DNA of 64,000 nt from Simkaniaceae bacterium (GCA_050248615.1 JBFWSA010000002.1:16457-80456), one strand, 5' to 3'. Counted from the stretch's first letter, positions 7,396 through 58,363 are shown. Notes: generated by a model not told the origin, from the letters alone. Numbers and translations: made by a program.

Positions 7396-9507
7396 GTGAT
7401 GACGATGCAAACCCTCAATCCTCAACAACAACTTGCAAGTGAGCATATGGAGGGACCCTTGTTGGTCCTTGCAGGAGCCGGTTCGGGAAAAACCCGGGTC
7501 GTTACCTGCCGCATAGCCCACCTTCTGGAAGTAGGGGTTCCCTCTTCGGAGATTCTTGCCCTTACTTTCACGAATAAAGCTGCGGAAGAGATGCGGAGTC
7601 GGATCAAAGCGATGACCGATCAATCTGTCCTCACGTCAACCTTTCACTCACTAGGTGCGCGCATCCTTCGGGAATCGATTAGTGCCATTGGCTACCGCAA
7701 TGATTTCACGATCTATGATGAAAATGATAGTTTGCAACTTCTGAAAAACTGTTTGGCAGCGATGGGGTATAAGGATGAAAAGGGACTTCTTAAGTCACTT
7801 CGGATTGCGATTTCAAACGCCAAAAATGATCTCCTCACCCCGAATGATTTGGATCGAGATTTTCGCTCTAGAACCGATCAGCTCCTCAAGGATGTTTTCA
7901 TTTGTTATCAAGAGAAGCTTAAAGAGTATAATGCCTTAGATTTTGATGATCTTCTCTATCTGACGGTAAAGTTATTTCGAGAATCGGAAGAGACTTTAAC
8001 CCGCTACCAAAAGCGGTGGTCTTTTGTTTTGATTGATGAATATCAAGACACGAATGCAGCCCAATATTTTATGACGCATCTTTTAGTCAAACGTCACCAA
8101 AATCTTTTTGTGGTGGGGGATCCCGATCAATCGATCTACTCGTGGCGGGGGGCTAATATCAGCAATATTTTGGAGTTTGAAAAGGATTATGAAAATGCTC
8201 AGGTCATCACTTTAGAGCAAAACTACCGGAGTACTTCCAACATTTTGGAGGGAGCCAATGCTCTCATTCAACATAACTCAGCGCGGTATGAAAAGAAACT
8301 GTGGAGTGATTTAGGGGCGGGAGAAAAGATCGGAGTTTTTATTGCAGGGAATGAACAACAAGAAGCGCAATTTGTCCTAGAACAGCTTGTGCGTAAAACA
8401 CGGGAAGAACAGATTCCGCTACGCGAATGTGTGATTTTTTATCGAACAAATGCGCAGTCCCGTATTTTTGAAGATGCTTTTTTAAGGTATCAGATCCCCT
8501 ATGTGATTATTGGGGGGCTTTCTTTTTATCAAAGGAGAGAGATCAAAGATATTTTAGCCCTCTTGAGGATGGTGGTTTCAGATGCAGACTTTCTCTCCTT
8601 CGCACGGACGATCAATCTTCCGAAACGGGGCATTGGCAATACAACTTTAATCAAGCTGCGAGAGAAAGCAGAAGAGCTCGAGCTGCCCATTCTTTCTCTC
8701 TGCCGACAGTGTCCCTTAAAACTATCGCCCAAAGTTGCGGAGGGGCTAAGGGACTATCTCGAAGTGATCGATACCTTAAAAGAGAGGATCAAAAATCACA
8801 CTCCCCTCGAAGAGGTGGTGCAGGAGGCAATCCAGCTATCGGGATATGAGCGCGTCCTTAAAGAAGATCCCGAGTCTTATGAGGACCGAAAAAGTAACCT
8901 GGAAGCTTTGATTAACAAAGCGGCTGAATGGAGTGAAGAGAGAGAAAATCCGACACTGGTCCATTTTTTAGAAGAGCTCTCGTTGAAGTCGAGTTTAGAT
9001 GATACCCCTGCTTATGATTCGGTCCGTCTGATGACCCTCCATAACGGAAAAGGATTAGAGTTTACCCTTACATTTATTGTGGGGATGGAAGAGGACCTAT
9101 TCCCCCATCTCAATGCTAAGGATGCCATCGAAGCTTTAGAAGAGGAGCGGCGCCTTTGTTATGTGGGGATGACACGTGCCAAACAATTTCTCTATTTAAC
9201 AGCCTCCACCTACCGGTTTATGTGGGGCATTTCGAAAGTGATGTGTCCGAGCCGCTTTTTGAAAGAGATCCCTCCCCAATACCTTTCTGTACTCAGTGAA
9301 CAAGAGGCTCCAGAGGAAGAGGATTGGGTAGAAGAGTCGGGATTTAAAGTGGGAACAGTGGTTTTTCATAAAGATTTCGGGAAAGGGATCATTCAAAAAT
9401 CGTACAACACATCACTCGGACTGACCTACGATGTTCAATTTTTTGAATCAAACATGACCCGCTCCCTTGTTGGCAAATATGCCAAATTCAAGGTGTGTAT
9501 CGATTAG
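7396..9507 (+). CDS. uvrD: UvrD/PcrA SF1 DNA helicase
   Basis: Motifs AGAGSGKT, LTFTNKAA, DEYQD, VGDPDQSIY, QNYRS, TLHNGKGLEF, YVGMTRA. Confidence 0.97.
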   Translation: MMTMQTLNPQQQLASEHMEGPLLVLAGAGSGKTRVVTCRIAHLLEVGVPSSEILALTFTNKAAEEMRSRIKAMTDQSVLTSTFHSLGARILRESISAIGYRNDFTIYDENDSLQLLKNCLAAMGYKDEKGLLKSLRIAISNAKNDLLTPNDLDRDFRSRTDQLLKDVFICYQEKLKEYNALDFDDLLYLTVKLFRESEETLTRYQKRWSFVLIDEYQDTNAAQYFMTHLLVKRHQNLFVVGDPDQSIYSWRGANISNILEFEKDYENAQVITLEQNYRSTSNILEGANALIQHNSARYEKKLWSDLGAGEKIGVFIAGNEQQEAQFVLEQLVRKTREEQIPLRECVIFYRTNAQSRIFEDAFLRYQIPYVIIGGLSFYQRREIKDILALLRMVVSDADFLSFARTINLPKRGIGNTTLIKLREKAEELELPILSLCRQCPLKLSPKVAEGLRDYLEVIDTLKERIKNHTPLEEVVQEAIQLSGYERVLKEDPESYEDRKSNLEALINKAAEWSEERENPTLVHFLEELSLKSSLDDTPAYDSVRLMTLHNGKGLEFTLTFIVGMEEDLFPHLNAKDAIEALEEERRLCYVGMTRAKQFLYLTASTYRFMWGISKVMCPSRFLKEIPPQYLSVLSEQEAPEEEDWVEESGFKVGTVVFHKDFGKGIIQKSYNTSLGLTYDVQFFESNMTRSLVGKYAKFKVCID

Positions 9508-9668
9508 GGCATGTAATCCAATTACACTTCGTCGCCTTAGCTTTTCCTATGGATAAGTTCATCGTTACCTTTCCTCAAGAGCCCAATTAGGGCTCTTTCC
9601 ATCAGGTGCCTTGAACTTTTCTCATAGGAAAACCTCTTTCAACTTGTTTTAATTGATTACACACCCTA
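9505..9668. mobile_element. Fold-back MITE-like element, family E (160-bp core 9507-9666, TA on both sides)
   Basis: Ends GGGCATGTAATCCAATTA / TAATTGATTACACACCC. Inner pairs TTTTCCTATG/CATAGGAAAA, AAGTTCA/TGAACTT, AAGAGCCC/GGGCTCTT. Confidence 0.8.
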
Positions 9669-9851
9669 GGTAAGGTCTTCTGCTGATTCTAGAGGCTCTA
9701 GTTCATGATGTGTCTCTTCTAGGGTCTCTTCGACCTGAAGGCTTTTATAACGGCGTGTGATCTCACCTTTCACATCACTCACTGAGCTTCCCATATCGCT
9801 ATTCCCTGCAAGCAAGGAAAAAATATAGAGACTCAAAGGTAGTAAATTCAC
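9666..9851 (-). CDS. Small hypothetical protein with N-terminal hydrophobic/signal segment
   Basis: 61 aa; its GTG start overlaps the upstream TGA (GTGA coupling). Confidence 0.55.
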   Translation of the reverse strand: MNLLPLSLYIFSLLAGNSDMGSSVSDVKGEITRRYKSLQVEETLEETHHELEPLESAEDLT

Positions 9852-10069
9852 TGTGTTTCCTTTGTTTCGTTTCCCTCTGGAAGAACCTCTCTAGCCCCTT
9901 CAGAGGAAAGTTTTCTGTAGCGCTCTAGGAGAGGATTTTTAAGATTATGAGCATATTCCTCTCGATAGTGCTTATAACTCACTTCATCATCGTGAGCAGG
10001 GAAGTAGGCAAACTGCGCGAGGATTAAGAAGAGTAAAGAAACGATCATAATGATGAGTCCTTTTCTCAT
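9848..10069 (-). CDS. Small single-pass membrane protein
   Basis: 73 aa; MRK followed by a hydrophobic helix; GAGGA-type RBS upstream. Confidence 0.65.
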   Translation of the reverse strand: MRKGLIIMIVSLLFLILAQFAYFPAHDDEVSYKHYREEYAHNLKNPLLERYRKLSSEGAREVLPEGNETKETQ

Positions 10070-10160
10070 TTTTGCCTATTCCTCTTCTTTTTTAATTTTT
10101 TCCGCTCTATTAGATCCTTTTCCCATTATTTTTTCAAGAAAAGTTTCTTTATTCTGGAAT

Positions 10161-10204
10161 TATACTCAAACAACCGCGAAAGCTTTCGCGGTTGTTTGAG
10201 TATA
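10161..10204. repeat. Perfect 44-bp palindrome; internally deleted derivative of element family A
   Basis: TATACTCAAACAACCGCGAAAG|CTTTCGCGGTTGTTTGAGTATA, i.e. the family A termini plus the internal CGAAAGCTTTCGCG motif. Confidence 0.9.
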
Positions 10205-10276
10205 CAGATGCCAAAGTATTGGAAGTTGTTTGAGAATAATTCCGGATAGGTTCTAAAAGGAAATTAAGGGGGAAAG

Positions 10277-11554
10277 ATGGGACATAACTTTCATTTAAGC
10301 CAAAATCTTAAACAGGATCAACGACTCATCATGAGTCAAGGGATGCGTCAAGCTTTTGACGTGTTGCAAATGCCTGTCTTAGAGCTGAGTGCATGGTTAG
10401 AAAAGGAAATCGAGCAAAACCCCCTTTTAGAAATTTCAAAACCTTCATGTAGAGAGATCTCTTATGGAGAAATGGCTAGGGAGCACGTTCCTTCACGGCA
10501 TGAGTATCTAATGGGAGAGATTCGGGCCCATTTTTTTGACAAAAAAGAGCAGCAGATTGCGGAATATATTGCGGGATCTTTAGATGAAAAAGGGTTTTTA
10601 AGTCTTTCTCTAGAGGAGCTTTGTAGAGCTCTCGAAGTGAAGGAGGAGGAAGCTTTAAAGGTCTTACATGTGTTCCAACGGATGGATCCCGTGGGGCTGG
10701 GAACACCAGGGGCTCAACAAGCCCTCCTTGTGCAATTGGAGAGGAAGGGGCTGAAACAGTCTGTCATCTATTCCATTGTAGATCAGCATTATAGTGATCT
10801 TCTGCACAAGCGGCTAAAAAAAATCCTCAAGACGTTTCATTTAACTCCTGAAGCATTGAAAGAGCTAGTGAAGACACAACTGCGCCCATTAAACCCTTTT
10901 CCTGGTCATTCTTTAATAGATATCTACAATCCCCCCATTACTGCTGATATCCTGATTGAAAAGGTGGAAGAGCGGTGGAAAGTCCGCGTCAATGAGAAGG
11001 ACCTTCCCTCTTTCGAAATACGAGAAGAGTATGCCTCTCAAGACACCCTTACGCAGGAAGAGAGAGACTACTTTCGTCGCCATAGGGCTGCGGGAAAGTG
11101 GCTCATGCGTATTTTGGATCAAAGAAAAGAGACACTGGAAAAGGTGATGGCTTACATTTTGAAGAAACAGATCGATTTTTTTGAGGGAGTGATCCAAGAG
11201 CCCCATCCCATGACTATGCAGGAAATTGCCCTGGCTCTCGAAAAAAGTGAATCGACCATCACCCGTGCTATTGGGGATAAATACCTTGCGTGCCCCCAGG
11301 GATTCCTTAGACTGCGCTCATTATTTACTCAAGCCCTTCAAACAGAAGAGGGGACAATTTCTAATAAGAGAGCCAAAGACCTTTTAGGAAAGATGATTGC
11401 GCAAGAGAAGACCCCTTTATCGGATGAAGCTTTGTCTCAATTGCTCAAAACTCAAGGGATTCCTTGTGCTAGGCGAACAGTTGCGAAATACCGAAAACAG
11501 CTGAAGATTCTTTCAGCATCTAAGAGGGTGTTTAAAAATTCATTCCAGCATTAA
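10277..11554 (+). CDS. rpoN: RNA polymerase sigma-54 factor
   Basis: Region I (Q/L-rich, EIEQNPLLE), HTH region (SESTITRA), and RpoN box ARRTVAKYR. Confidence 0.96.
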   Translation: MGHNFHLSQNLKQDQRLIMSQGMRQAFDVLQMPVLELSAWLEKEIEQNPLLEISKPSCREISYGEMAREHVPSRHEYLMGEIRAHFFDKKEQQIAEYIAGSLDEKGFLSLSLEELCRALEVKEEEALKVLHVFQRMDPVGLGTPGAQQALLVQLERKGLKQSVIYSIVDQHYSDLLHKRLKKILKTFHLTPEALKELVKTQLRPLNPFPGHSLIDIYNPPITADILIEKVEERWKVRVNEKDLPSFEIREEYASQDTLTQEERDYFRRHRAAGKWLMRILDQRKETLEKVMAYILKKQIDFFEGVIQEPHPMTMQEIALALEKSESTITRAIGDKYLACPQGFLRLRSLFTQALQTEEGTISNKRAKDLLGKMIAQEKTPLSDEALSQLLKTQGIPCARRTVAKYRKQLKILSASKRVFKNSFQH

Positions 11555-11593
11555 TGAAAAGGATCTTTTCCCCTAGGGAATCCGTTTTCGACA

Positions 11594-11757
11594 TATACTC
11601 AAACAACTTCAAAAGTTGGATTTTCGGCTGCGCCAAAGCACCGTAATTTGCCGATCTTAAATGACCTCATATTTCTAATATTAGGTCATTTAAGATCGAC
11701 GAATTCCGAAAGCTTTCGCGCTAGCCCAAAACCAATTTTTGAAGTTATTTGAGTATA
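11594..11757. mobile_element. Fold-back MITE-like element, family A copy 1 (160-bp core, TA duplication)
   Basis: TA-TACTCAAACAACTTCAAAA...TTTTGAAGTTATTTGAGTA-TA; near-identical copies at 55982 and 56590. Confidence 0.92.
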
Positions 11758-11800
11758 CACAAACTTTCCTAAGTTTGCTCCGGTCTCCAAACAGATCCTC

Positions 11801-11967
11801 TAGTGCCTGACCCCAAAAGTCCTTGCAGTAATTTTTGCGTGAAAGACCCGCGATTGAACTGCCGAAAAACACCCTGTATTCATGCAATACAGTGTGCTTT
11901 TCAGCAGCTCAAGCCCGGGAACTTTGACGCTAAAAATTCCATGAAGGACTTTTGCGGTCAGGCACTA
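11801..11967. mobile_element. Fold-back MITE-like element, family B (163-bp core, TA within CTAG)
   Basis: CTAGTGCCTGACCCCAAAAGTCCTT...AAGGACTTTTGCGGTCAGGCACTAG with central stem CTGTATT/AATACAG. Confidence 0.85.
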
Positions 11968-12033
11968 GGGAAAAACCTCTCTTTTCAATGCTGAAAGCAA
12001 TATTTAAACACCCTCTAAGCATCGTCTCTCAGA

Positions 12034-13515
12034 TTAGTAAATTTTGGATTCTTCAAAGGTGAGTCCCACACGGTAGGGGTGGGAGGCTTTTGTCCAAGCA
12101 CTAATCAAGCTTTGGGCTGAAGAAAAGGAAAGATTCTTCAAATCTTTTTCTAGATCTAAACGACGATAAAGGGCCATTTTCAAAGCATCAGGGGCTCCCC
12201 AAGCTCCTTCGTTACGGTGGATATTCCACATATAGATTCCCTCAAGAGCGATCCCTTCTCCACGGACTTTTTCTTCCACTTTCCCGAGATGAAAATAGAA
12301 TCCATAGGCTCGTGTTTTGCGCATAGCTTCTACACAAGGGGAAAGGATAATGGTCTCTTTCAGTAAGACCTGATCTGTGGATAAAAGGACGTAGGAGGTC
12401 GAGCTTTTCAAAAGGATTTTCAGTAAGGAAGCTTTAAAACCGGCTTCAGCATAATATGCGGGACGGATAAAGTGAACCTGAGGGAATTGGCTTTTGAGCG
12501 TTTCATACCCTGCAAAGTTTTCTTCGGTGCAGTCATAAATCACATAGATCTGATCGATCCCAAAGAGATGTTTTGTACTCGATTTTAAGGAGGAGTGGAG
12601 CTTTTCGGGTTGGTTTTCAGAAAAAATCACAAGATCGGCAAGGGAAGGAGGTTTTTTTAAGAGTGCAGACTGGGCAAGCTTTCCTCCCATAAAGGCGAGT
12701 TTATGCCCCCGTTTTTCTTTGGGGGCTTTTTCATTGTGAATATAGAGGACATCGGGAATGAAACGGACATGGGATTTACCCAGTTCGGCAATGGGAACAA
12801 GAAGGGCAGCGTCACTTTCAACGGAGAGAAAATGTCCTCGCTGCAGATCTACATTTTTAAATAGAGAGGCATAAAAGGTTTTAAAGGGGGCAACAACCCA
12901 AGGGGCCCGTTGAATGCGTTTCTTACTCAGAACCTTTTTCGGTTGCGGGTCATAAATCCCTTTCTTATAACTTGAATATTCTAAGTATTGCCCATAGGTG
13001 AGCCAAACATCAGGATTGGCATAGGAACGGTTAAGATGGGAAAGGACCTCATCATGGGCCAGCCAATCAGTCCCATAAAGGTGGATGATCACCTCTTGGT
13101 CTTTGCAACGATTCACCACTTCATGGTACTTCTGATAAACCTCGTAATCTTTTTCACAGGGAATCACAGTCATAGAGTGATCCTGCATGAGTGACTGAAG
13201 GGTCGCTACTGTCCCATCGGTCGATCCATGATCGATATAGACCACACGAAAACGGGAATAGTGTTGCTGCATGATCGATTGGAAGTTTTGTTCGATTGAA
13301 TCGACATTGTTTTTTGTTAATACAATGAATGTAAAAGATTTATCTTCTTGTGGATCGAGATGTGTTTGACAAAAGTCCTCAGCATGAAGGACTTTTGTAT
13401 CCTTTTTACCTTTAATCAATCGATATTCTTTAATAAAGAAAACCGGAAGGATTAATATAATAAAAAGAATGAAAAGACGATGATAAAAAGATTTCTCTGT
13501 TTTATTTCTTTTCAT
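12034..13515 (-). CDS. Two-domain GT2-like (GT-A) membrane-anchored glycosyltransferase, degenerate motifs
   Basis: N-terminal TM; FIVLTKN, IDHGSTDG, VWLTYGQY; paralogous to 16630..18261. Confidence 0.8.
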   Translation of the reverse strand: MKRNKTEKSFYHRLFILFIILILPVFFIKEYRLIKGKKDTKVLHAEDFCQTHLDPQEDKSFTFIVLTKNNVDSIEQNFQSIMQQHYSRFRVVYIDHGSTDGTVATLQSLMQDHSMTVIPCEKDYEVYQKYHEVVNRCKDQEVIIHLYGTDWLAHDEVLSHLNRSYANPDVWLTYGQYLEYSSYKKGIYDPQPKKVLSKKRIQRAPWVVAPFKTFYASLFKNVDLQRGHFLSVESDAALLVPIAELGKSHVRFIPDVLYIHNEKAPKEKRGHKLAFMGGKLAQSALLKKPPSLADLVIFSENQPEKLHSSLKSSTKHLFGIDQIYVIYDCTEENFAGYETLKSQFPQVHFIRPAYYAEAGFKASLLKILLKSSTSYVLLSTDQVLLKETIILSPCVEAMRKTRAYGFYFHLGKVEEKVRGEGIALEGIYMWNIHRNEGAWGAPDALKMALYRRLDLEKDLKNLSFSSAQSLISAWTKASHPYRVGLTFEESKIY

Positions 13516-13564
13516 TTATTAAACTACCCCTACTCCTTGAAATAACGTCAGGATCGTAGAGATG

Positions 13565-14389
13565 TCAAGAAAACTGTGCTAAGATTTGCTGCCAGCGGGG
13601 AAAGATTCGGGATTTGTCTTTAATATAGAGGAGAATCTCTTCAAGAGACTTGGTAGCAAATAGCTGAATTTCAAGATCCGTTAAACGAATGGCAAGGGGA
13701 AAAGGATCTTTTTGCTTAGGAAAAAGATTTTGGAGGGTTTGGAAGGTTTTCTTCAAAATCCGCTGGTCTTTTAGGAGAAGAACACAGCGAATAAAGCAAT
13801 CAGCCAGGGGGAGAAAGGGAACCCCTTTGAGTAAAAGGAGAAAGGGGGTATTCCAGAAGAAAAGCGCTGCGACTTGCATAGCCAGTGAAATAAAAATCAG
13901 TGAGATAAAGAATAACACTTGGCTGGGTTTGCGATAAAGGGGGCCTAAGAAGCGGCGCCATTTTTGGGGAGCGTTCCAGTAGGCTAGGATTTCTTCAAAA
14001 CGGGGTTCCTGAAAGGCAACTCTTAGAGCATGCACGGCTTCATGCTGAAGGACTTCCTCTTGAGTATAAAAAAGAAAATGCCCTTTTTTAAACCCTTTGC
14101 GGAGTTGAACGATAGGAAAAGAAGCCCCTTCAGGTGTGGTAAAAGTCCAGGAAGCTCCCCCTTGCCAAGGAAGGAGACGGTGATTGGAATAGTGTAGAGG
14201 AATCCAGTGGAGATGGGCGCGGAGTCTATTGAAATCAGCGATTAGGGGTCCATATTTTTGATCTTGTAATAGCTGCTGAGAGTGGGTTTTCAAGATGTCA
14301 AGCCGTTTGACAAAGGCCTCTTCTGTCTCATTAGGACCAGGAATGAACCCCTCTTCCCCCAAAGCCTTCAGCGCCTCTAACCCTATCAT
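13565..14389 (-). CDS. Hypothetical membrane protein with HExxH motif
   Basis: HEAVHA..FQEPRFEE plus two TM segments. ATG at 14389 overlaps the upstream TGA, so it is preferred over 14437. Confidence 0.75.
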   Translation of the reverse strand: MIGLEALKALGEEGFIPGPNETEEAFVKRLDILKTHSQQLLQDQKYGPLIADFNRLRAHLHWIPLHYSNHRLLPWQGGASWTFTTPEGASFPIVQLRKGFKKGHFLFYTQEEVLQHEAVHALRVAFQEPRFEEILAYWNAPQKWRRFLGPLYRKPSQVLFFISLIFISLAMQVAALFFWNTPFLLLLKGVPFLPLADCFIRCVLLLKDQRILKKTFQTLQNLFPKQKDPFPLAIRLTDLEIQLFATKSLEEILLYIKDKSRIFPRWQQILAQFS

Positions 14390-15468
14390 TTTTTCAATTT
14401 GCGGATCGACCGGTATTGGACGATGAGACAGGCGCACAACACCAAATTGGCCGATAAGATGACAGCATTAAAAAGGAGAATTTGATTATTTTTACGAGAG
14501 ATAGAAATCAGGCGGCGTCTCACATTCCGTTCAAACTTGGTTTCGTCTTCAAACCATGTCGAAGCGTAGTAGTGATGTGCAAAAAGGGCAAAGTCATCAT
14601 CAATCCGGTTAAAATAGGCAGCAGGGAAAATGATATCTGTATTTCCCTCTTGATCGGCTCCACTTTTCACGGCATCTTCAAAGGCAATAAAAGAGCGCTG
14701 AGCTACGCGGTAGATAATCGACTCTTTATCATCTCCTGGATAAGCCATCCCCACCTCATCCCATCTCTCTTTAACCCTGTCGATCGCTTTTTGCATCACA
14801 GGATGCCCAGGTTTTACACCAATGATGTTATTATTAACCGAGATCGAGCTACTGAGAATGGGTTTATGGGGGGGTTCTAAACCACAATAGAGATCAAAGT
14901 TGTAGTGAAAAGGGGAAAAAGCCTTGAAGCACCGTACATCATGGTCAACGTAAAGCCCTCCCTCTTGATTTAAGATTTCATACCGAAGGAGGTCTGATTT
15001 TTCTGCATAATTATCGGACTGCTGAAAGCAATCTTTCAGTTTGGTAAATTTAAAATCTGTTACAAGATGCATCTCCATGGAAGGGTGGGGAAGGGCTCGG
15101 CGGCGATCTGTCCAGAATTTAAAGGTCCAGTTGGGGTGGTGCTCAACCCATGAGCGGACATTTTCAAGCGATTCTTTGGGGAAAGGGTTGGGTCCTAACC
15201 AAATAAAGTGAATGACTTTAGGAATTCTCACCTCTTCTTGCTTGAGAAACTGCAGGTCTTTGTTTTTGGTGTAAATGTCTTTAAAGCGATGAATGTTTTT
15301 AAAGTCTTCATGGGTCTCGACAAATTTCCACACACTTTTATTCGACCCCATCAAGGTATTGAAATCATCGGACTGTTTCACGTGGCTTTTCTTTTCACAC
15401 GCAGTCATTAAAATGATGAGGAGAATGATGAAGAGGATTTTTAAACCCAAACTTAAAGGAGCTTTCAT
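14386..15468 (-). CDS. GT32 (DXD sugar-binding, OCH1/SUR1-like) glycosyltransferase
   Basis: IPKVIHFIW, SDLLRYEIL, GGLYVDHD; N- and C-terminal hydrophobic segments. Confidence 0.88.
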   Translation of the reverse strand: MKAPLSLGLKILFIILLIILMTACEKKSHVKQSDDFNTLMGSNKSVWKFVETHEDFKNIHRFKDIYTKNKDLQFLKQEEVRIPKVIHFIWLGPNPFPKESLENVRSWVEHHPNWTFKFWTDRRRALPHPSMEMHLVTDFKFTKLKDCFQQSDNYAEKSDLLRYEILNQEGGLYVDHDVRCFKAFSPFHYNFDLYCGLEPPHKPILSSSISVNNNIIGVKPGHPVMQKAIDRVKERWDEVGMAYPGDDKESIIYRVAQRSFIAFEDAVKSGADQEGNTDIIFPAAYFNRIDDDFALFAHHYYASTWFEDETKFERNVRRRLISISRKNNQILLFNAVILSANLVLCACLIVQYRSIRKLKK

Positions 15469-16574: not shown

Positions 16575-16629
16575 AAAAACCTACCCTGTTTTAAAAATTG
16601 CGGGGTCCTTGGGTAATGCCTGAATAGGT

Positions 16630-18261: not shown

Positions 18262-18426
18262 GCGCTCCTTGATAAAAAATCTTTTTTAAGGATGGTAACT
18301 TATTCGATTTCGTTTTCTGATTCAATAAGAAATTCCTTCCTTGGGACTATCAAAAATGATTGAAGCTTGAAAATAATGAATAAAATTAAGTAGCCTGAAA
18401 AGCTTATTATTTATTTTACTGAAGAT

Positions 18427-25360: not shown

Positions 25361-25399
25361 CCATAAATACTAGGGAGATTTTAGATTAAATTTCTACCT

Positions 25400-25563
25400 G
25401 AACCTATCCCACTAATCTATTTAAGGGGATTTTTTTAGATTTTTCTTGAAGATTTTTTCCCTTCATTTTGAGGACATTGTCCAAGAGACAAGGCCTCAAA
25501 ATGAAGGGAAAAATCAGCAGAAAAGGCAAAAAAATACTGGAAATGGATTAGTGGGATAGGTTC
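25400..25563. mobile_element. Fold-back element, family D (164 bp)
   Basis: GAACCTATCCCACTAATC / GATTAGTGGGATAGGTTC; inner TTTTTCCCTTCATTTTGAGG / CCTCAAAATGAAGGGAAAAA; no clear target duplication. Confidence 0.82.
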
Positions 25564-34034: not shown

Positions 34035-34038
34035 AATT

Positions 34039-41362: not shown

Positions 41363-41393
41363 TTTAGATCAATAGAAAATAGCTGGAAGTGCT

Positions 41394-46003: not shown

Positions 46004-46147
46004 AAAATAACCCCTATTTGGGGGACTATTGCGTACTAGAAAGTCATCGTCAAATAACCTTTTCGTTGCAACAATCCTTTGTGCAAAATGATCTCAAACA
46101 AGAAATAATTTTAGAGCATCGTGCTTTTTATTTATACCTTTTAGGGG

Positions 46148-49350: not shown

Positions 49351-49364
49351 GTGTCTCCCTTAGG

Positions 49365-50576: not shown

Positions 50577-50589
50577 GAGCTTTTCCCGT

Positions 50590-52224
50590 TTAACGTGATT
50601 TCATTTTTTCTACTGTACGCATTTCTTGACCAAGACGCCCTAGCTCATACCCTTCATAATCGACAAATTTAAAGAACCGTTCAAACTCAGGAAAAACCTG
50701 AGAAACTTGTTTGGCCATTTCTTGTGCCACATAACGGTAAGAGGGATGTCCTGCTGGAGAGGAACGCAACTCACACATCCACTGCAAAGCACGGAGGTTG
50801 ATGTGAAAGTACCAGTGGATATTATAGGCCATGGGAACAACATATTGTGCTTCTTCAGGAAGTTCTTTTGCAATTTCTTCGTAAACATCTTTAGCTTTGT
50901 CCATCGCTTCGCGGTACTCTTTTTCCATATCCGTATCAAGAATTTCTTGAGGGATGTAATACCCCAAATGACAGGATAAAGGTTGACGTTGTTGGGAAAG
51001 GGTACGGTGACGTTGAAGATCACGATAAATCCCGAAGTCCGCAACAATTTCAAAGGTAAACTCAGCTTGTTCTAAGGCACGTGGAGATTTATGGCGACGG
51101 TTTTGTCTAAAAGCGCTGGCGGCTTCAAAAATACGGGAGAGATCCTCTTTGGGAAGTCTACGACACATTTCTTGAAGTTCTAATAGACCTGCTTTTGATT
51201 GATCAAAGAGGAGGGCGGCTCCCACTTTAATCGGACTTTCTTGATCATAATTGATAAGACGTACAGTCGGTCGGTCTAACGGTTCTAAAGAAGAGGTGTA
51301 TTGCTCTGCAATGATATGGAGCTCCTCATCGGTTTTCTCTCTAAACTCTGCAAAAGATTGTTGATGTTTATGGCTGAGATCCGCTCGACGGACAAAGGAG
51401 GGCATGACTTTCGAAAGTTCTTGATGGCTTGAACGGGCTATTTCCTGAAGCTCAGAAAGGTTATGACAGTTGAGTTTTTGGATGAGCGACTCAAAAAACC
51501 GTCCATTTCCATAGACTCCCATATTTGTCAGAGCACTGGCAGGAAGGAGTCCCCGCAGACAATCGAGCACTTTTGCACGCAGCGCAGCTGTATAGGCAAT
51601 TTTGGAGACTTCATGTTCTTTGGGAAATTTTTTCTCCATATACTCGGTCAAGGGAGGAATCAAACGCCCATAGACTTCAAACAAATGGTTACACGTATCC
51701 ACATAAATATCGCGATATGCAGAGGTCATTAAAATGGGCTCACGAAAGAAAAGAAACTCCCCTTCATATTTTTGATCGAAATAAATGTAACGTGTCGATT
51801 TTTCAAGAGGTGATCCCCCAATGCGGCTATCTTCAATGACTTTTGCTGCAATCATCGAAACATTTTCAACAGCTAAATGGGCCCCCCCGAGCTCTCCAAT
51901 TGAATCATCCCCATAACCATCCAAAATGCGATCATAAAAATTTTGTGCTTTTTTAATCGCAACACTTTGGTCTTCCAGTTCATCATCATTTACCTCTCCC
52001 TTCTGACCTGCAATCGAAGCAAAGGCGGTCTCTTCATTTAAAATAAACTCTTTAAGGAGCAAAGAGCGCAACCCTAAACTAGAACGAGAGTAACGGGAAA
52101 ACAGGGCTCCCTTGATAACTTCTGGAAGATTTCGTAAACAAAAGATATGACTGGAAGTATTGGTAACATACCGTTTAATGATTTTCAGCTGCGACTCATT
52201 GAACTCTTCGTAGTCATTTAACAT
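50590..52224 (-). CDS. thyX: Flavin-dependent thymidylate synthase, double-domain type
   Basis: RYSRS, GYGDDSIGE, EKSTRY, RDLQRHRTLS; ATG at 52224 follows GGAG. Confidence 0.9.
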   Translation of the reverse strand: MLNDYEEFNESQLKIIKRYVTNTSSHIFCLRNLPEVIKGALFSRYSRSSLGLRSLLLKEFILNEETAFASIAGQKGEVNDDELEDQSVAIKKAQNFYDRILDGYGDDSIGELGGAHLAVENVSMIAAKVIEDSRIGGSPLEKSTRYIYFDQKYEGEFLFFREPILMTSAYRDIYVDTCNHLFEVYGRLIPPLTEYMEKKFPKEHEVSKIAYTAALRAKVLDCLRGLLPASALTNMGVYGNGRFFESLIQKLNCHNLSELQEIARSSHQELSKVMPSFVRRADLSHKHQQSFAEFREKTDEELHIIAEQYTSSLEPLDRPTVRLINYDQESPIKVGAALLFDQSKAGLLELQEMCRRLPKEDLSRIFEAASAFRQNRRHKSPRALEQAEFTFEIVADFGIYRDLQRHRTLSQQRQPLSCHLGYYIPQEILDTDMEKEYREAMDKAKDVYEEIAKELPEEAQYVVPMAYNIHWYFHINLRALQWMCELRSSPAGHPSYRYVAQEMAKQVSQVFPEFERFFKFVDYEGYELGRLGQEMRTVEKMKSR

Positions 52225-52332
52225 CGTTTGCTCTCCTTCAGTTTGGCAGTGATAAATAATCCAATGCATAAACTTAAAGATTCTAACTCCTTTTCCTTTT
52301 TTTGGAAAACCCAAGTTGTTATGCTAAAAATA

Positions 52333-53345
52333 ATCTTACTGTGGGTGGAGTTATGATCCCTATATCCTATCCGTTTTTAAAGCGCCCCAGGCGTAACCGA
52401 AAATCTATTGCGATCCGGCAACTTGTTGAGGAAACGACCTTGAGTGCAAAAAATCTCATCTCCCCTTTTTTTATTGTTGAGGGAGAAGGGGTCCGCCAGC
52501 CTATTGTTTCGATGCCTGGAATTGAAAGGCTCTCGCTCGATCTCCTTTTAAAAGAAGGAGAAATCCTTCACGCCCAAGGAATTCCTGCAATCGCCCTCTT
52601 CCCTGCCCTCCAGGCTTCTATTAAAGATGAAGAAGGATCAGAAAGCTGGAATCCAAACTCTCTTATTTGCAGAGCAATTCGTCTTCTTAAAAAAGAGCTG
52701 CCGAGTTTATGCGTGATTGCAGACATTGCCCTCGATCCTTTTACGACTCATGGTCACGATGGGATTGTCAATATGAAGGGAGAGGTGGATAACGACCTCA
52801 CTCTAAGTGCTCTTACCAAACAGGCTCTGTGTTATGCCCAAGCGGGATGTGATATTCTGGCTCCTAGTGATATGATGGATGGTAGGGTTCGAGTTATCCG
52901 AGAAGCTCTTGATAATCAGGGGGAAACTGCGGTGTCCATTTTAGCCTATACAGCAAAATATGCTTCGGCTTTTTATGGCCCCTTCAGAAGTGCGATTCAC
53001 ACACGTCTTCAGTTCGGAGATAAAAAAACCTATCAAATGAATCCGGCAAATATTCAAGAAGCTGTGCGTGAAGCCCTTCTCGATCAAGAGGAAGGGGCGG
53101 ACATGCTCATGGTCAAACCCGCCTTACCCTATTTAGATGTCATTGCAAAATTAAAAGAAAAAACCCTACTCCCTGTTGGCGCTTATCATGTTAGTGGAGA
53201 ATATGCGATGATAATGGCTGCCCACGAAAAGGGGTATCTTGATGCACAAAGTACACTTTTTGAATCGCTTGTAAGTATTAAGCGTGCGGGGGCTGACTTC
53301 ATTTTTACTTATGCTGCACCCCAAATCCTAGATTTACTAAATTAA
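52333..53345 (+). CDS. hemB: Porphobilinogen synthase (start uncertain; in-frame ATG at 52353 likely)
   Basis: RPRRNR, DIALDPFTTHGHDG, SDMMDGRV, MVKP, YHVSGEY. Confidence 0.95.
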
Positions 53346-53403
53346 TTTTTTCTGTCATCATCAAGGTAAGGGGTCGATCGAAAGGGGAAGTCCAAAAAAT
53401 GTC

Positions 53404-53841
53404 ATGAAGGGGGGGGTTCTCATGATTGAAAATGGTAAGCAAGTTGCTATCGAATATAGTGTTTTCTTAGACGATAATACTAAGATAGATAGCAATGTGG
53501 GGAAAGATCCCCTGATATTTCTTTTTGGAGCACATCAAATATTGCCCGCTCTAGAAGAAGCTCTTAGAGGTCTTGACGTAGGAGATAATCGCGAGATCAC
53601 TTTACCTCCAAAGGATGCCTACGGTGATGTAAACCCAGATGCGTATAAACGGGTAGAAGCGAAGCTCATTCCAGAAGATTTACGCTTCGAAGGAGCTTTA
53701 TTAGTTGTCTCAGATGAACAGTTTGGGGAAATGCTGATCCGCGTCGAAAGCTTAGAGGGGGATCAAATCATTCTCGATTTCAACCACCCCCTTGCAGGGA
53801 AAACACTGAAGTTTGATGTAACGGTTATCGATATTAATTAA
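53404..53841 (+). CDS. FKBP-type peptidyl-prolyl isomerase (SlyD/SlpA-like, no His-rich tail)
   Basis: LEEAL.G, P.DAYG, LDFNHPLAGKTLKF. Confidence 0.9.
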   Translation: MKGGVLMIENGKQVAIEYSVFLDDNTKIDSNVGKDPLIFLFGAHQILPALEEALRGLDVGDNREITLPPKDAYGDVNPDAYKRVEAKLIPEDLRFEGALLVVSDEQFGEMLIRVESLEGDQIILDFNHPLAGKTLKFDVTVIDIN

Positions 53842-55990
53842 CCGATTCTCGCTCTTCTTGAATCGTTGTATAGAGACGTTTGCCTGTGGCTGCACGTGCA
53901 CCCGTATCGCGGAGCCAAACTGATAATGCGTAAGGGATGAAGGTGCGGCTACTCTTGGTTAAGAAAAAATCGAGAGGGATAGCGAAGGAAACCCCTTTAT
54001 CTCGATAGCGCGCTCCGTTGACAATGTCATGGGCATTTGTCCAGCTATACCAAACATTAAAGTGAAAGCCACTAGAAAAATAGCGTCCTATTTCAAAGCG
54101 CGCTCCTACATCCCGGGCTAGAAACTTCCCAAGACTGACCTTAAATTCTAATTTCAAAGGTTTTAGCGTATAGTAAAGATCAAGAAAATATTGATACCCA
54201 ATAAAATGTTCGTATTCAGGAGTATATCCCTTAAACTTTCGCACTTTTGTTGTAAATCCAAGCCCATGATATTTCCGTTTAAGCACTCCAGCACTTTCTA
54301 AACCTATCGCCCAATCTTGTCCCACAGGGTAATAAAGCACCTCAGCTGCTACACCTGCATAAGCAGGTTCAAAATACCCCGTTGCGACACGCCCATACCA
54401 CCCTTTTTTGATATACATCCCTCGTTGGATGTAGGCTTGCTCAATAGCAAGGGAATTTGTTTGGAAGTATTTGATACTATCTGATCGCACATTCAAAATC
54501 TGAGAAGGATTGAAAAAGTCCATATCCCCCACATCAGATAGGCTGGACTTAATGTTATAGGCTCCTTGAATTTTGTAGTAGAACTGGTCAAAGAGATACC
54601 CTTCGGGGCCCGCAACAAGGCCTACACTATACTTAAACTTCCCCGTAACACTCCCAAAAAAAGTCAAAAGACGAGGACGAATCGTAAACGTCCAAATTCT
54701 TTTTGTCCGATGATATAAAAGGGTCCCTTCATATGGATTGGGAGGGGGTGTCGGTTCCCGCATCGGTGCTAGGGTTTGAAACTCAAAGTCCCCAATCTCC
54801 CGCTTTCGAAACCGTTTTAAATCGATCGTGCGAAAACGGTATTCATGCGTAGGGACACCATCGGCTTCGATCACAACAGTCACCTGGGCAATATTCGAAG
54901 GAGTTAGTGCTCTAAGAATACTTTCAATCCGCTCTTTTAAATCCTTTTCTTCTCGATAGAGGATATTGATCATCTTGATCCAAAGAGTATCTCCCGATAG
55001 ATAAATCCGATAGAGATTGAGCCCCTGCTCAGAAAAAGCAAAGGCAAGTTCTTGAGCGAATTCTCTCTCACTTCTTAAGTATCCCAATGGCTCGGTATCG
55101 AGAGGTGCTTTATAAAGGGGGGGATTATGGACCTTGGGGAAGAGTCCCTTCGACTCCCCTAAGTTGTAATTAAACGAGGCGGAAGCAGCAATATCTTCTC
55201 CCCTCAAGCTACTGACACTCAGTTGTAACATATCAAAAAATGTGGTAGAAAGCCCCACATTAATGCGCGATTTATAGGTTTTCCCTTTGGGATGCTCCCA
55301 ATAACTCTGTTTGTAATCAATGGCATCCCACTCCGCAAGTACAGTGAGGCGGTTGATTCCTGGAATGTTTGTTTTTCGAAAAGGGGTCCACCCTATCCCT
55401 CCAAAAAACCCCCTTATTCTCCCCTTTCCCCAACCCAATGTTATCTCGAGGTTATAATCTGTAAGCTCCTTAGTAGCAACAACATAAAAAGCATGAAACC
55501 TTTTAGAGCCATAAAAATCCTCTAGCCCAACAGCAATTTCGGGAAAATGAGGAAACCCATCTTCTTTACGGAGGACCCCAAACTTGATATTAGCTCCCCG
55601 GTCTGAAAAATCTCCAAAACCCGCTTTCCCTATATCAGGGTCGGGAATTCCACAATAAACACGGTAATTAATGCCAAATTCGAGTCGCTCCAAGGCTTGA
55701 ATCGTTGCTCCATAGTTACGATAGGGGGGGACATAAGAAAACCCTAATGCCACCATTCCCGCTTGATTCATCCGTGCAGAGGGCATATTAAAGTACCCTC
55801 CCATCAGTGTATAGTTATAGTGGAAGGGGAGGGTATCTTTTATTTCTTGATTGATCGTATGGACTAACGCCAGATCCCTAAATAGAAGAGAAACATCCTC
55901 CTCTGCAAAGAGAGGGGCGATGATTAAAAAAATGATTATATAGCGAATTCTGGCAAACAAGTTTATGCAAAAAATTAATTCTATACTCAA
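53834..55990 (-). CDS. YjbH-like outer-membrane protein (start uncertain)
   Basis: GGYFNMPSARM, GYFEPAYAGVAAEVLY, GKFLARDVG, DKG.SF.IPLD. Confidence 0.8.
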   Translation of the reverse strand: MSIELIFCINLFARIRYIIIFLIIAPLFAEEDVSLLFRDLALVHTINQEIKDTLPFHYNYTLMGGYFNMPSARMNQAGMVALGFSYVPPYRNYGATIQALERLEFGINYRVYCGIPDPDIGKAGFGDFSDRGANIKFGVLRKEDGFPHFPEIAVGLEDFYGSKRFHAFYVVATKELTDYNLEITLGWGKGRIRGFFGGIGWTPFRKTNIPGINRLTVLAEWDAIDYKQSYWEHPKGKTYKSRINVGLSTTFFDMLQLSVSSLRGEDIAASASFNYNLGESKGLFPKVHNPPLYKAPLDTEPLGYLRSEREFAQELAFAFSEQGLNLYRIYLSGDTLWIKMINILYREEKDLKERIESILRALTPSNIAQVTVVIEADGVPTHEYRFRTIDLKRFRKREIGDFEFQTLAPMREPTPPPNPYEGTLLYHRTKRIWTFTIRPRLLTFFGSVTGKFKYSVGLVAGPEGYLFDQFYYKIQGAYNIKSSLSDVGDMDFFNPSQILNVRSDSIKYFQTNSLAIEQAYIQRGMYIKKGWYGRVATGYFEPAYAGVAAEVLYYPVGQDWAIGLESAGVLKRKYHGLGFTTKVRKFKGYTPEYEHFIGYQYFLDLYYTLKPLKLEFKVSLGKFLARDVGARFEIGRYFSSGFHFNVWYSWTNAHDIVNGARYRDKGVSFAIPLDFFLTKSSRTFIPYALSVWLRDTGARAATGKRLYTTIQEERESVN

Positions 55991-56145
55991 ACAACTTCAA
56001 AAGTTGGGTTTTCGACTGCGCCAAAGCACCGTAATTTGCCGATCTTAAGAGACCTCATATTTCTAATATTAGGTCTCTTAAGATCGACGAATTCCGAAAG
56101 CTTTCGCGCTTGTCCAAAACCAACTTTTGAAGTTGTTTGAGTATA
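55982..56145. mobile_element. Fold-back element, family A copy 2
   Basis: 160-bp core flanked by TA, near-identical to 11594..11757. Confidence 0.92.
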
Positions 56146-56328
56146 AAAGTAAATTAAGTTCGCAATTAACAGAGAAAAAAGCAAGAAATTATTGAATACA
56201 AGCAAAGAAATTATTTTAACTAATATTACACTTTAAATAAATGACTGTTTTAATTATTATTCGCGCATTATTTTGAAAACCAATTAAAGAAAAACAAATA
56301 TCTATTTTTTGAAAATTAAGAGGATAAC

Positions 56329-56568
56329 ATGACAGAAGTAAATGAAGTTTCAAATGGCGCAGAGATCATCAATTTCGAAGAGATCCTACTGGCTGCTATT
56401 GCAAGCGCAAAAGAGTCAAAGTCACGAGATGATGCTATGAGCGCTCTTCTTGTTCAACATCTGAATATGATTGCTGAGCAAATGCAAACAGAAGCAACTA
56501 TTCAGAAAGAAATCTCTCTACTCGAAAAGACAAGTTCAAGTATCGTCGATTTCGTTCCTGTCAATTAA
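56329..56568 (+). CDS. Small helical hypothetical protein
   Basis: 79 aa; RBS AGAGGA; AT-rich upstream region; downstream hairpin. Confidence 0.65.
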   Translation: MTEVNEVSNGAEIINFEEILLAAIASAKESKSRDDAMSALLVQHLNMIAEQMQTEATIQKEISLLEKTSSSIVDFVPVN

Positions 56569-56589
56569 TCTATCATTGAGAGGGCGTAT

Positions 56590-56752
56590 TATACTCAAAC
56601 AACTTCAAAAGTTGGATTTTCGGCTGCGCCAAAGCACCGTAATTTGCCGATCTTAAATGACCTCATATTTCTAATATTAGGTTATTTAAGATCGACGAAT
56701 TCCGAAAGCTTTCGCGTTGTCCAAAACCAACTTTTGAAGTTGTTTGAGTATA
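56590..56752. mobile_element. Fold-back element, family A copy 3
   Basis: 159-bp core flanked by TA, lying between GAGGGCGT and ACGCCCTC. Confidence 0.92.
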
Positions 56753-56766
56753 ACGCCCTCTTATAT

Positions 56767-58098
56767 TCACTCATAGTACTGGGATGCGTAAGCTTTTTGT
56801 CCTTTCTTGATCACTTCAGGCATTTCAATTTTCGAGGGACACAGGAAGGCAGGCAAGGCAAAATCTTCTGGCGCCACTTCGAGTAGTCCCAGCTTTTCTG
56901 CTTTTTCATAATCTTCTGCAAGAATCGCTTTGATCAGAGAGAGTGTATGAATAGGTAGCGGCATCACACGATCATAAATGCTACTATCTACAAAAGCTCT
57001 TTCTTCTCCGTGTTGCAACGTTGTAAATAAGGGGTTTTTCCTCCGGAATAGGTAAGCTCTTGTCGCACTATACCCTTTGCGCGAAAGTTTGAGAAAATGT
57101 AAGCGTTCACGTTTTTCTTTCCCTTCAGGGAGAGCGCAAACTCCTTGATGATAAAATCCTAAAACCCCATTAGCATGTACTTTTTCTCCCGTTAGGGGAT
57201 CTCCAGAAATATAGCGAACTCCTTCTACCTCTTCGACGAGGCTTTGGATACAAACCCCTCGATTAACCCGGTAAAATCCCCTTTTTGAGGGGGGTAAGCC
57301 TTCTCCGGCAAGGCTAATCACAAGACTTGTGTCATAAATCCCTTGTGTAATCAGTTTTCCAACAGCAAGAACAGTGGAAACATCTAGGGTCCAGATCACC
57401 TGATCATTTCTTAAAATCGGATGTAAAGCAGCAATATGGATCGATGGGTTTGCTATGGGATGGGGCCCTGTCGCTGTATGTTTTTCTACAAACTGTGCTT
57501 GTATAAAAGGAGGGAACGAGCACCCTTTTTCATAGACTAAATGGACGGGACAAAAACGGCTAAGCACTTTTAGACCCGCTGCAAAGAGTTCCTCTCTCCC
57601 TTCAACTTGCAGCTCTGGAGGGGGCATAAAGGGAGCTGACTCCAGTGCTTTAACAAAAATGGCTTCAGGCCTGTGTTTAGGATGCGCGATGCGCATGCAC
57701 GGACGCACCTGAATATGAGGCATTAAACCTCCTTCCATAAAACGAGCCAGTATCTCTTCCAGCTTTGCTTCTAAACTTAAGGGTTCATGCTTGACAGGAG
57801 TTTGCTTGAGGTCGGTTTCAATGACAACAGAAAGAAGACGCCTTTTGAGCCCACGGACAATCTCTTTAACCACACCGGATGCTGGGGAAACAAAAAACCG
57901 CCCCGAGCAGGATTTGTCTTCAAGAAGAGGTTCCCCAACCTGCACAAAATCGTTTACGTTTTTTAAAAGGGTAAAACGGTGGGTTTCAAAAGGACTAACA
58001 TCTAACGCTACCCTTTTAGAAAGGGGAAGATCTTGCACCTCCCCTTCAGGCTTTCCCCCTAGGGGAATATTAAGCCCCTGTTTGATTCGAATATCCAT
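56767..58098 (-). CDS. nqrA: Na(+)-translocating NADH-quinone reductase subunit A
   Basis: IKQGLNIP..G.P, SPASG.V, ISGDPLTG, LGLLEVAPEDFAL..CPSK. Confidence 0.92.
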   Translation of the reverse strand: MDIRIKQGLNIPLGGKPEGEVQDLPLSKRVALDVSPFETHRFTLLKNVNDFVQVGEPLLEDKSCSGRFFVSPASGVVKEIVRGLKRRLLSVVIETDLKQTPVKHEPLSLEAKLEEILARFMEGGLMPHIQVRPCMRIAHPKHRPEAIFVKALESAPFMPPPELQVEGREELFAAGLKVLSRFCPVHLVYEKGCSFPPFIQAQFVEKHTATGPHPIANPSIHIAALHPILRNDQVIWTLDVSTVLAVGKLITQGIYDTSLVISLAGEGLPPSKRGFYRVNRGVCIQSLVEEVEGVRYISGDPLTGEKVHANGVLGFYHQGVCALPEGKEKRERLHFLKLSRKGYSATRAYLFRRKNPLFTTLQHGEERAFVDSSIYDRVMPLPIHTLSLIKAILAEDYEKAEKLGLLEVAPEDFALPAFLCPSKIEMPEVIKKGQKAYASQYYE

Positions 58099-58133
58099 AC
58101 GACTTCAGCTCCACTGGCTAAATAATGCAAATT

Positions 58134-58198
58134 GAGACCATTGCAAAAGTCATTCCATTCATGAAGCTATCCTAATAAATCATTTTTGCAACGGTCTC
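58134..58198. mobile_element. 65-bp miniature element with IS5-like terminal inverted repeats
   Basis: GAGACCATTGCAAAA / TTTTGCAACGGTCTC (14/15 match). Confidence 0.65.
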
Positions 58199-58363
58199 AA
58201 ATTTTAAAGGAATCTTTCCACTTTGGCTATAAAAAAAGTTGTTTGAGTATTGATTACTATTTATGAAAATTCCTGTTTTTTAAGTATTCTCAATTGCAGA
58301 TAATTATGGAAATTTCTATACTTTTTTCAACACAACAAAGAAAAATTGATAGGTTCACATCTA

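Follow-up and report, generated by a model that had tools for sequence, protein, structure and literature searches.

The palindromic elements described here are very probably MITEs that share a swappable core. As judged from sequence comparison, each is built from a conserved middle of ~100 bases and tips of ~25-30 bases that match IS630, IS5, IS982 or ISAs1. They are dispersed in many copies, nest within one another, and carry family-specific target duplications, tips shared with insertion sequences, a common middle, strand-biased G.A mismatches and covarying stems. Since tips matching four transposon families surround a folded middle that many of the repeat families share, the elements are likely modular parasites that borrow different transposases by swapping tips and keep their length. 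An unbiased census of the 2.04-Mb genome returned 191 units bounded by inverted repeats, of which 130 span 155-180 bp (target duplications included), against none of that size in the same census of a locally shuffled genome. The common length noticed in an earlier note on this DNA is thus a genome-wide peak, and we agree with that note that a shared constraint lies behind the common length and shape. About 30 families of these ~160-base hairpin-shaped repeats are present, with 327 loci, 173 of them full-length, that total 38.6 kb or ~1.9% of the genome; family A alone has 47 full-length copies. Crude gene calls place 157 of 172 full copies between genes, while 10 overlap an ORF and five lie at contig edges. 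The interiors of all 38 representatives, with 30 nt trimmed from each end, are more stably folded than their dinucleotide-shuffled versions (z −2.3 to −14.4). A length near 160 bp is not universal: family I measures 173 bp, deleted copies of 60-130 bp occur, and Bacteroidota members are mostly ~165-190 bp by a rough estimate.

Within the window, that is, the whole 64,000-nt stretch of DNA analysed, we found elements A to E where the earlier note had put them, each folding as one rod. Element E (9507..9666, minus strand, which is also its purine-mismatch strand) is a 160-bp rod MITE with IS5-type tips and a TA duplication, whose left TA overlaps the stop codon of a UvrD/PcrA-like helicase gene. 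Element C (11523..12016, minus strand), presumably IS5-like from its terminus type, has GAGGGTG tips and a 3-bp TNA duplication, and is interrupted by two insertions: a first copy of A (11596..11755, minus strand, 160 bp, IS630-type tips, TA duplication) and element B (11803..11965, minus strand, 163 bp, TA duplication in CTAG). Uninterrupted copies of C, at G000:C8:63739-63904 and C24:10036-10201, measure 166 bp as delimited here and 164 between the GAGGGTG termini. Element D (25400..25563, plus strand, 164 bp) has IS5-type tips (GAACCTATCC) and a variable 2-bp duplication. It carries the core that recurs across phyla, ~100 conserved nt at 25434..25533 (plus strand) with T-tract stems, G.A-rich internal loops and an apical hairpin; the covariance model R2, described below, scores the element at 60.7 bits on the plus strand and 36.6 on the minus. 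Two further copies of A lie at 55984..56143 (160 bp) and 56592..56750 (159 bp), both on the minus strand. The window had been said to contain no transposase, which holds for the 11 ORFs scanned of its 63; genes or fragments of IS630, IS982, IS5 and ISAs1 lie elsewhere in the genome.

Matches between the elements and IS ends are confined to the first 25 nt; nt 26-80 do not match. Family A agrees with the IS630 element L022 at 17-20 of 25 tip positions as against 13-17 of 55 further in, and comparable tip counts were obtained for L with IS630 L040 (19-20/25), D4 with the IS5 remnant C55 (17-19/25) and K with ISAs1 L353 (20-23/25). For E with IS5 (12-14/25) and H with IS982 (11-12/25) the match is limited to the first ~9-10 nt, and for families B and C no parent IS was found. 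Rather than mostly TA or TAA, as first reported, the target duplications are specific to the family: TA in A, G, B, I, J and E, a variable 2 bp in D (CT in the window), 3 bp in C, R and S, 5-9 bp in H, N and P, and 10 bp in K. In family A the TA is duplicated in 43 of 46 measured copies, with TATA in two more, and an exact 10-bp duplication was seen in one of the six K copies scored. Short, non-coding and multicopy, with target duplications and IS-shared terminal inverted repeats around an interior not shared with the IS, the elements are MITEs of type II, and each family probably depends for its movement on the transposase that its tips match, acting in trans. The evidence on such movement is indirect, from C, which exists both as empty and as filled copies.

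Beneath unrelated tips, the middles recur. Those of E, J and K align over ~100 columns with z of 11-17 against a pairing-preserving null (E-J 16.5, E-K 11.4), and with the same null we obtained 6.3 for D3/G1, 5.1 for M1/S, 5.8 for A/I and 4.5 for A/B, whose tips differ. Among 703 family pairs, 115 exceed z of 3 (59 in the opposite orientation), and many pairs have no detectable core similarity. A held-out profile trained on IS982-ended cores brought eight of 28 others to p<=0.05, and one trained on IS5-ended cores 10 of 25; the A/B lineage failed both (0/9 each). The cores fall into no fewer than two lineages: type II, with D, G, H, N, M, S, J/K/E and others, and A/B/I, to which element A belongs. 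As MAFFT gave poor alignments of 24-28 diverse cores, covariance models were seeded on five well-aligned ones. Model R1, made from five IS982-ended cores with their tips removed, gave the IS5-ended D2 46.8 bits on the strand expected from prediction and 19.9 on the opposite one; the reverse strand of one of its training sequences reached 35.8 bits, equal to several held-out families. For the tip-free model R2 we aligned 14 hits to R1; the covariation count on A6 is thereby biased in the model's favour, and no argument is drawn from it.

R2 found matches in 57 of 150 Chlamydiota genomes and 14 of 27 families, and 27 of the 29 hits examined lie, by eye, within inverted-repeat tips of several types. 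These tallies are floors, as R2 has no match genome-wide in G187 even though its locus L159 scores 36 bits. An exact motif pair recovered 120 loci, by their record labels 47 from Chlamydiota, 43 from Bacteroidota, 16 from Bacillota and 14 from other groups, and in 99 of them the sequence between the motifs, which the pattern leaves free, folds at z<−2. On these matches the core occurs in at least three phyla, so that a system of Chlamydiota, as the earlier note had it, is too narrow a description. Neither A nor a Ruminococcus copy had a match in a plasmid collection, and two motif patterns had none in viral contigs. The motif was also considered, by eye, as a sigma-54 or sigma-70 promoter, an idea given up since only isolated copies fitted it. 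Searches against described elements found no Rfam, ERIC, RPE1 or RAYT match; for Rfam, nothing reached gathering in the window, at five tRNA loci (the tRNA only) or at 20 cross-phylum loci, and the matches below it were generic miRNA hairpins far under threshold. Nor did we find the elements described in the literature, in keeping with the earlier suggestion that they are possibly undescribed: no published description of a shared-core system was found, and a census of 1.4 million MITEs (PMC11602168) may already include such sequences with the common core unremarked.

The inner dimensions of the middle vary while total length is retained. Among 29 hand-picked elements with IS5-like tips from two lineages, the 10 Ruminococcus/Oscillospiraceae copies have an inner gap of 72, flanks of 30+30 and a total of 161-162 bp, and 16 others have a gap of 51-58, flanks of ~40+39 and a total of 159-167 bp; the middle of the Ruminococcus type is longer by 15-20 bp, and its total is still 161 bp. 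The remaining three measure 173-179 bp.

The fold is specific to one strand. When this strand was chosen by G.A (180) over C.T (17) mismatches, the other classes were G.T:A.C 147:65, A.A:T.T 74:24 and G.G:C.C 46:9, and of 172 copies it was the more stable strand in 156 when folded as RNA and in 164 when folded as DNA. The core has tandem G.A pairs, folds best on one strand and has covarying stems; selection and gene conversion can both produce covariation of the arms. Of the ssDNA or RNA intermediate proposed earlier, the single-stranded part, be it RNA or ssDNA, gains support from these strand-biased mismatches. In G000 the folded strand coincides with the C-rich strand 72:40, and in the complete genome G022 (split at its midpoint) it does so in 33 of 44 cases; relative to flanking genes it is sense:antisense 26:25. 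Orientation tracks replication, not genes. The replication bias is absent in G012 (10/19) and in the A/B group (31:29). It does not rise steadily with the difference in stability between strands (33/47 in one bin, three other bins unbiased), and an explanation through that difference is only partly supported.

The reading that we find best overall, and probable on balance, is that of a folded cis module that gains new tips by fold-back copying while total length is under selection, the function of the core being putative. A new family would be born once a transposon tip has the module 30-40 bp to its inside and is then duplicated onto the opposite arm by fold-back (template-switch) copying. 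Two loci may be snapshots of this origin, which we regard as moderately probable. One is an IS982 remnant (G000:C12:37760-38546) with the core inside both ends, inverted (58.9 and 31.9 bits). The other is tRNA-Leu(TAA), where the core forms a conserved rod of 163 bp in which the end of the tRNA, copied in inverted orientation, serves as the "tip"; across seven genomes the rod has an invariant AGAT/AGAT and two-sided changes in 27 of 52 pairs. Of 38 further genomes in the family, seven have the rod at the same tRNA (partial in two), as do two genomes of other families, and among sixteen loci near tRNA-Leu in relatives R2 matched only one. As to function, the module might aid the jump of the element, either through a fold that forms in a single strand (of DNA at the replication fork, or of RNA) or by recruiting a host protein one helical turn inward or outward of the tip. 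Either would bring together two ends only ~160 bp apart, and selection on the distance from tip to tip would hold the length near 160 bp. We give such a helper role in transposition about an even chance. R2 detected no core in the other IS ends tested, including the IS630, IS5 and C11 IS982 elements that match the tips of A, E, D and H, and transposition therefore does not need the core. More tentatively, at somewhat under even chances, the core may be a transposase-agnostic cis module that works across phyla: a ~100-nt strand-specific fold that, ruler-like, has whatever sequence lies 30-40 bp beside it, the tip of an IS or even the 3′ end of a tRNA, copied by fold-back so that a symmetric rod of ~160 bp results, and that in this way repeatedly gives birth to MITE families which hijack IS630, IS5, IS982 and ISAs1 transposases.

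The single-copy tRNA-linked rod could also be the functional locus of a host-selected structured RNA, acting as an antisense RNA or as a trailer that blocks tRNA folding, with the MITEs as parasites that acquired the core from it and carry it passively. Its recurrence at one tRNA among relatives, the covarying stems and an outer arm that tracks the tRNA sequence speak for this, as do element sequences in RNA libraries, where contigs of four runs contain related copies; such contigs give no strand, ends or level and cannot show expression. We nevertheless consider it unlikely, as model R3 finds the tRNA-linked rod in only nine of 151 phylum genomes (five at tRNA-Leu(TAA)), Rfam has no match, orientation to genes is unbiased, and passive carriage leaves motif conservation in three phyla and length compensation unexplained. 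No link was established between the elements and C. trachomatis CTIG504, a ~75-nt RNA (PMC3061062). A shade less likely is that the motif pair is a dsDNA site for a nucleoid or bending protein, a synapsis enhancer, and the palindrome a by-product of arm-to-arm gene conversion. The arms keep the non-complementary AGAT/AGAT while the flanking stems covary, which a symmetric dsDNA site would not need, strand bias in the mismatch classes extends over the entire rod, and the motif does not fit the IHF consensus by eye; this has to be set against phased A/T tracts in the motif, its two distances from the tip, 30 and ~40 bp, which differ by a helical turn, and the precedent of IHF sites described within Correia elements (PMC10969869).

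The earlier note had seen unrelated families converging on one shape, and MITEs born independently might indeed reach a ~160-bp rod through a transpososome length optimum and tolerance of hairpin transcripts. Hairpin repeats of similar size are known, among them bcr1 of Bacillus (~155 bp, structure kept by compensatory change; PMC3184786), the RPEs of an intracellular bacterium (~150-bp palindromes in several families; PMC10969869) and QMITE2 of Coxiella (150-190 bp; PMC5896051), and many of our family pairs lack core similarity. What was taken for convergence is largely homology, however, since the same middles recur under different tips and both the tip-free model and the exact motif pair recover other-tipped elements, in 14 families and three phyla. 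Convergence is refuted for E/J/K, D/G1, M/S and A/B/I, may still hold between the A/B and type II lineages, and is improbable as a general account. Finally, a bulged strand-specific fold and replication-linked orientation would suit one structure-recognising HUH/RAYT-type enzyme moving all families via the folded strand, as for REPINs or IS200/IS605, which we hold to be barely credible, and the single mobilising enzyme once proposed as the shared constraint is excluded, because the tips and the duplications of 2, 3, 5-9 and 10 bp point to four DDE families and a Y1_Tnp search found no Y1/HUH transposase in G000 (96% complete; control positive in 6/14 genomes). Integron attC sites and REPINs are likewise strand-specific folded DNA with unpaired purines and replication-linked orientation; they are moved by tyrosine recombinases or HUH enzymes and leave no target duplication, unlike the elements seen here with their DDE-type tips and duplications.

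Among known systems, the rod over the whole length recalls ERIC/IRU of Enterobacteriaceae. The E. coli K-12 hairpin between aceF and lpd, which we take to be an ERIC, has an apical GA-flanked 6-bp stem that resembles, by eye, the apex of some Bacteroidota members; ERIC differs in being shorter (~125 bp) and without the outer motif pair, and, with the type II core as the comparison, this locus matched neither R2 (nor did the K-12 chromosome) nor a Bacteroidota profile HMM. The usual view of MITEs takes each to be a decayed derivative of a single parent IS; in the present case one structured middle has persisted, in several phyla, while its transposase partner changed many times. If the helper role is real, tip capture by fold-back copying would be a general route for MITE birth, and the frequency of whole-length palindromic rods of 150-170 bp in bacteria would become a testable question. 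The minimal construct is 160 bp, and tip, core, length and strand can be varied one at a time. As with the RPEs, there are several families of palindromes in the ~150-bp class; RPEs often insert in frame in genes, whereas these elements lie mostly between gene calls, and the model TIGR01045, which covers RPE1 only, had no match over cut-off in five genomes. By their descriptions, bcr1 is set apart as cruciform-like and single-family (PMC3184786) and QMITE2 as carrying a GTAG REP (PMC5896051). Prokaryotic MITEs of type II, which go with a cognate IS as MITECca01 does with ISCca4 of Cardinium, are, in the accounts available, similarly non-coding, under 500 bp, intergenic, mutually nested and stably folded as stem-loops, with target duplications and IS-shared terminal inverted repeats (PMC10969869, PMC9769881). 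Each of those is tied to one parent IS (PMC10969869, PMC9769881), and MITE sizes vary widely (median 104 bp, range 49-800; PMC11602168), unlike the one middle found here under the tips of four IS families, across phyla and at near-constant length.

For the nested C element, contigs from DNA runs over window positions 9300-12300 were considered, but their joints are explained by other genomic C copies, and no strain-level empty site was established from them. When 46 A copies are ranked by their likeness to the one in the window, the copy in C18 comes seventh; an independent A insertion at the same TA is therefore just as likely as a 329-bp C::A composite that moved whole. The window also holds reduced forms. 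A collapsed element of 69 bp at 58132..58200, absent from the earlier list, has family S tips around the remnant of a D5-type end, and a lone family A end lies at 58236..58250. A perfect 44-bp palindrome made of family A ends, an A with an internal deletion, occupies 10161..10204, and another degenerate A end, reaching to ~10246, adjoins it.

All seven elements that the earlier note had located in the window (G000:C2:16457-80456) are at the positions given, and each folds as a single rod. The genome-wide length census that the note proposed, run as an inverted-repeat search of the whole 2.04-Mb genome (G000, 96% complete) with spans of up to 2.5 kb allowed, gave 233 pairs of 60-520 bp, or 191 units once concentric inner pairs were removed. 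The ~160-bp peak held: 130 of the 191 units span 155-180 bp, against none in the same census of a locally shuffled genome. Most of the remaining units are either derivatives with deletions (60-130 bp) or elements nested in one another (320-500 bp). BLAST with 30 family representatives (158 bp for K to 173 bp for I) found 327 loci, 173 of them full-length; 163 of 172 measured copies are 155-175 bp long, a count that depends on the chosen queries, as the inverted-repeat census does not. Most copies (157/172) lie between crude gene calls, and 16 of the 72 between tandem genes begin at or before the upstream stop. In the window, the TA duplication of E (9505-9507) forms part of a helicase stop codon, and at 55982-55990, too, an element abuts or overlaps a gene end. 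Element C is a repeated target: its copies on contigs C8 and C24 are empty, the one on C18 holds A, the window copy holds both A and B, and the one on C1 holds G1 and J.

The elements are MITEs of several transposase families and, as the note's analogy had it, agree with the MITE definition in PMC10969869. Target duplications proved family-specific in length and sequence rather than mostly TA or TAA: TA, variable 2 bp, 3 bp, 5-9 bp or 10 bp. IS elements with matching tips (the terminal inverted repeats of ~25-30 nt) were found in G000 or its relatives: IS630 for A and L, IS5 for D and E, IS982 for H and M, and ISAs1 for K. The likeness of MITE to IS reaches no further than ~10-25 nt, and for B and C no parent IS was found in G000 or relatives. 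The proposed HUH/RAYT search returned no Y1 transposase in G000, and the elements matched no Rfam family. They also fell outside ERIC (represented by an E. coli hairpin presumably of that family), RPE1 and REPIN/RAYT when tested against each. PMC9769881, PMC11602168, PMC3184786, PMC2267715, PMC5896051 and PMC3061062 served as comparison literature; in full-text literature, mostly outside subscription papers, we found no description of chlamydial MITEs, or of one core under the tips of several IS families.

It is this reuse of one core, the ~100-nt folded interior, under several tip types that takes the system beyond ordinary MITEs. With 30 nt removed from each end, the interior of E lines up with those of J and K across ~100 columns though all three tips differ (z 11-17 against a null model that preserves pairing). 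Further cross-tip pairs are D3/G1 (z 6.3), C/x048 (6.0), G2/Q (5.8), A/I (5.8), M1/S (5.1), O/P (5.0) and A/B (4.5); overall, 115 of 703 core pairs exceed z 3, 59 in opposite orientation. Held-out profiles recovered 8/28 and 10/25 families of other tip classes (p≤0.05) and 0/9 A/B-type sequences, which points to two core lineages or more. The families, described before as unrelated, are modular, and a modular MITE superfamily is well supported.

The core folds in a strand-specific way. Arm-arm mismatches are purine-rich on one strand, and that strand is the more stable in 156/172 copies as RNA and in 164/172 as DNA; since the same strand is favored in both, RNA and single-stranded DNA are indistinguishable here. 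When the families are anchored on the apex, they have in common stems with T-tracts, one bulge, G.A pairs in tandem and, beneath a 5-9-bp apical stem, a purine loop. Orientation shows no bias relative to flanking genes (26:25). With respect to replication, the strand that folds is the C-rich one, which is the leading-strand template, by 72:40 in G000 (p 0.003) and in 33/44 copies of the complete genome G022, of another genus (midpoint split, p 0.001; 36/44 with a split point chosen by eye); this bias is absent in G012 (10/19) and in the A/B lineage (31:29). Hairpins are lost when the lagging-strand template carries their stable strand, and loss of such copies is the simplest reading, which the stability test backs only in part.

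The note's proposal of a chlamydial system stands for presence in that phylum, but not for restriction to it. The tip-free covariance model of the core (R2, 102 positions), with 26 candidates scored per genome and counts therefore floors, matches at least 57 of the 150 Chlamydiota genomes, spread over 14 of 27 families, and 0/26 genomes in the family with 1.0-1.3-Mb genomes. By eye, 27 of the 29 best matches from other genomes are enclosed by inverted-repeat tips, which are of several kinds. The exact two-motif pattern over genome_contigs gave at least 120 loci, of an estimated total near 350; the records of those listed are labelled Chlamydiota for 47, Bacteroidota for 43, Bacillota for 16 and other or unclassified for 14, one of these being Thiobacillus. 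R2 scores all 100 loci submitted, in part by construction. A result that does not depend on the pattern is that the sequence separating the two motifs folds at z<-2 in 99/120, and folds better on the motif strand in 90/120. R2 matches number 49 and 26 in two Bacteroidota genomes, and 0, 1 and 2 in three others. Family A occurs in many copies (91-94% identity) on the G022 chromosome but did not turn up in G001, which belongs to the same genus as the window, and this suggests horizontal spread. A MAG titled Chlamydia trachomatis carries the elements (L183, L218), against the 0/26 in the small-genome family, and that label may be wrong.

Shared ancestry accounts for part of the length peak. Among 29 hand-picked elements with IS5-like tips, ten Ruminococcus/Oscillospiraceae copies have 72 nt between motifs and 30+30 nt outside (total 161-162 bp), 16 others have 51-58 nt between and ~40+39 outside (159-167 bp), and three measure 173-179 bp. 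The motif position thus shifts by one helical turn per arm with total length unchanged, a contrast between two lineages and not 29 independent events; Bacteroidota members are longer. Because spacing and flanks compensate, we suggest that selection on total length acts as well.

As to origin, an IS982 remnant (G000:C12:37760-38546) carries the core inside each end but has no tip on the inner side. Its left end is matched by MITE M2 and its right end by MITE M3. Among 31 IS loci tested, the others showed no core in their ends. Element U (G000:C4:64812-64974; L073, L105), a single 163-bp copy, overlaps the 3' end of tRNA-Leu(TAA): the last ~13 nt of the tRNA make up its right arm, and its left arm repeats them in inverted orientation. 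Of 38 further genomes in the family, 7 have the rod at the same tRNA (in two it is partial), as do two genomes from other families, three families in all (L106-L111, L114, L134, L273, L274). Its AGAT/AGAT is invariant while 27/52 pairs are changed on both sides, the outer arm tracks the tRNA sequence, and the strand that folds runs antisense to the tRNA. Fold-back copying would duplicate whatever adjoins the core onto the other arm, and both the remnant and the rod would fit such copying. We infer a helper function as well as a fold-back origin.

Further IS982 remnants in which a hairpin core sits close behind each end are C3:45223-45896, C20:40940-41250, L320 and L326; the C20 remnant lies directly behind tRNA-Leu(CAA). 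U-type cores with an IS982-like tip on one side only (L275, L277, L279, L283; genomes G115 and G178), several of which are at contig ends, may represent additional core-bearing IS ends. Outside the tRNA-Leu(TAA) rod, ~10 nt of flank are conserved and could pair with the T-stem. In G185 and G001 the rod stands behind a partial copy of the tRNA, which lies 4-8 kb away from the intact one, as after an integrated island, and the genes beyond it differ. Within the window, a 1082-aa ORF that contains repeats of ~60 aa and two 403-aa paralogs in tandem occupy 1467-7320 (an NCBIfam scan of the ORFs at 1467-4712 and 4801-6009 gave no match), and a chlamydial GreA-fusion model scores above its cut-off. 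At G000:C11:36152-37205, a 190-codon ORF is flanked by two direct-orientation G1 copies, a possible MITE-bounded composite.
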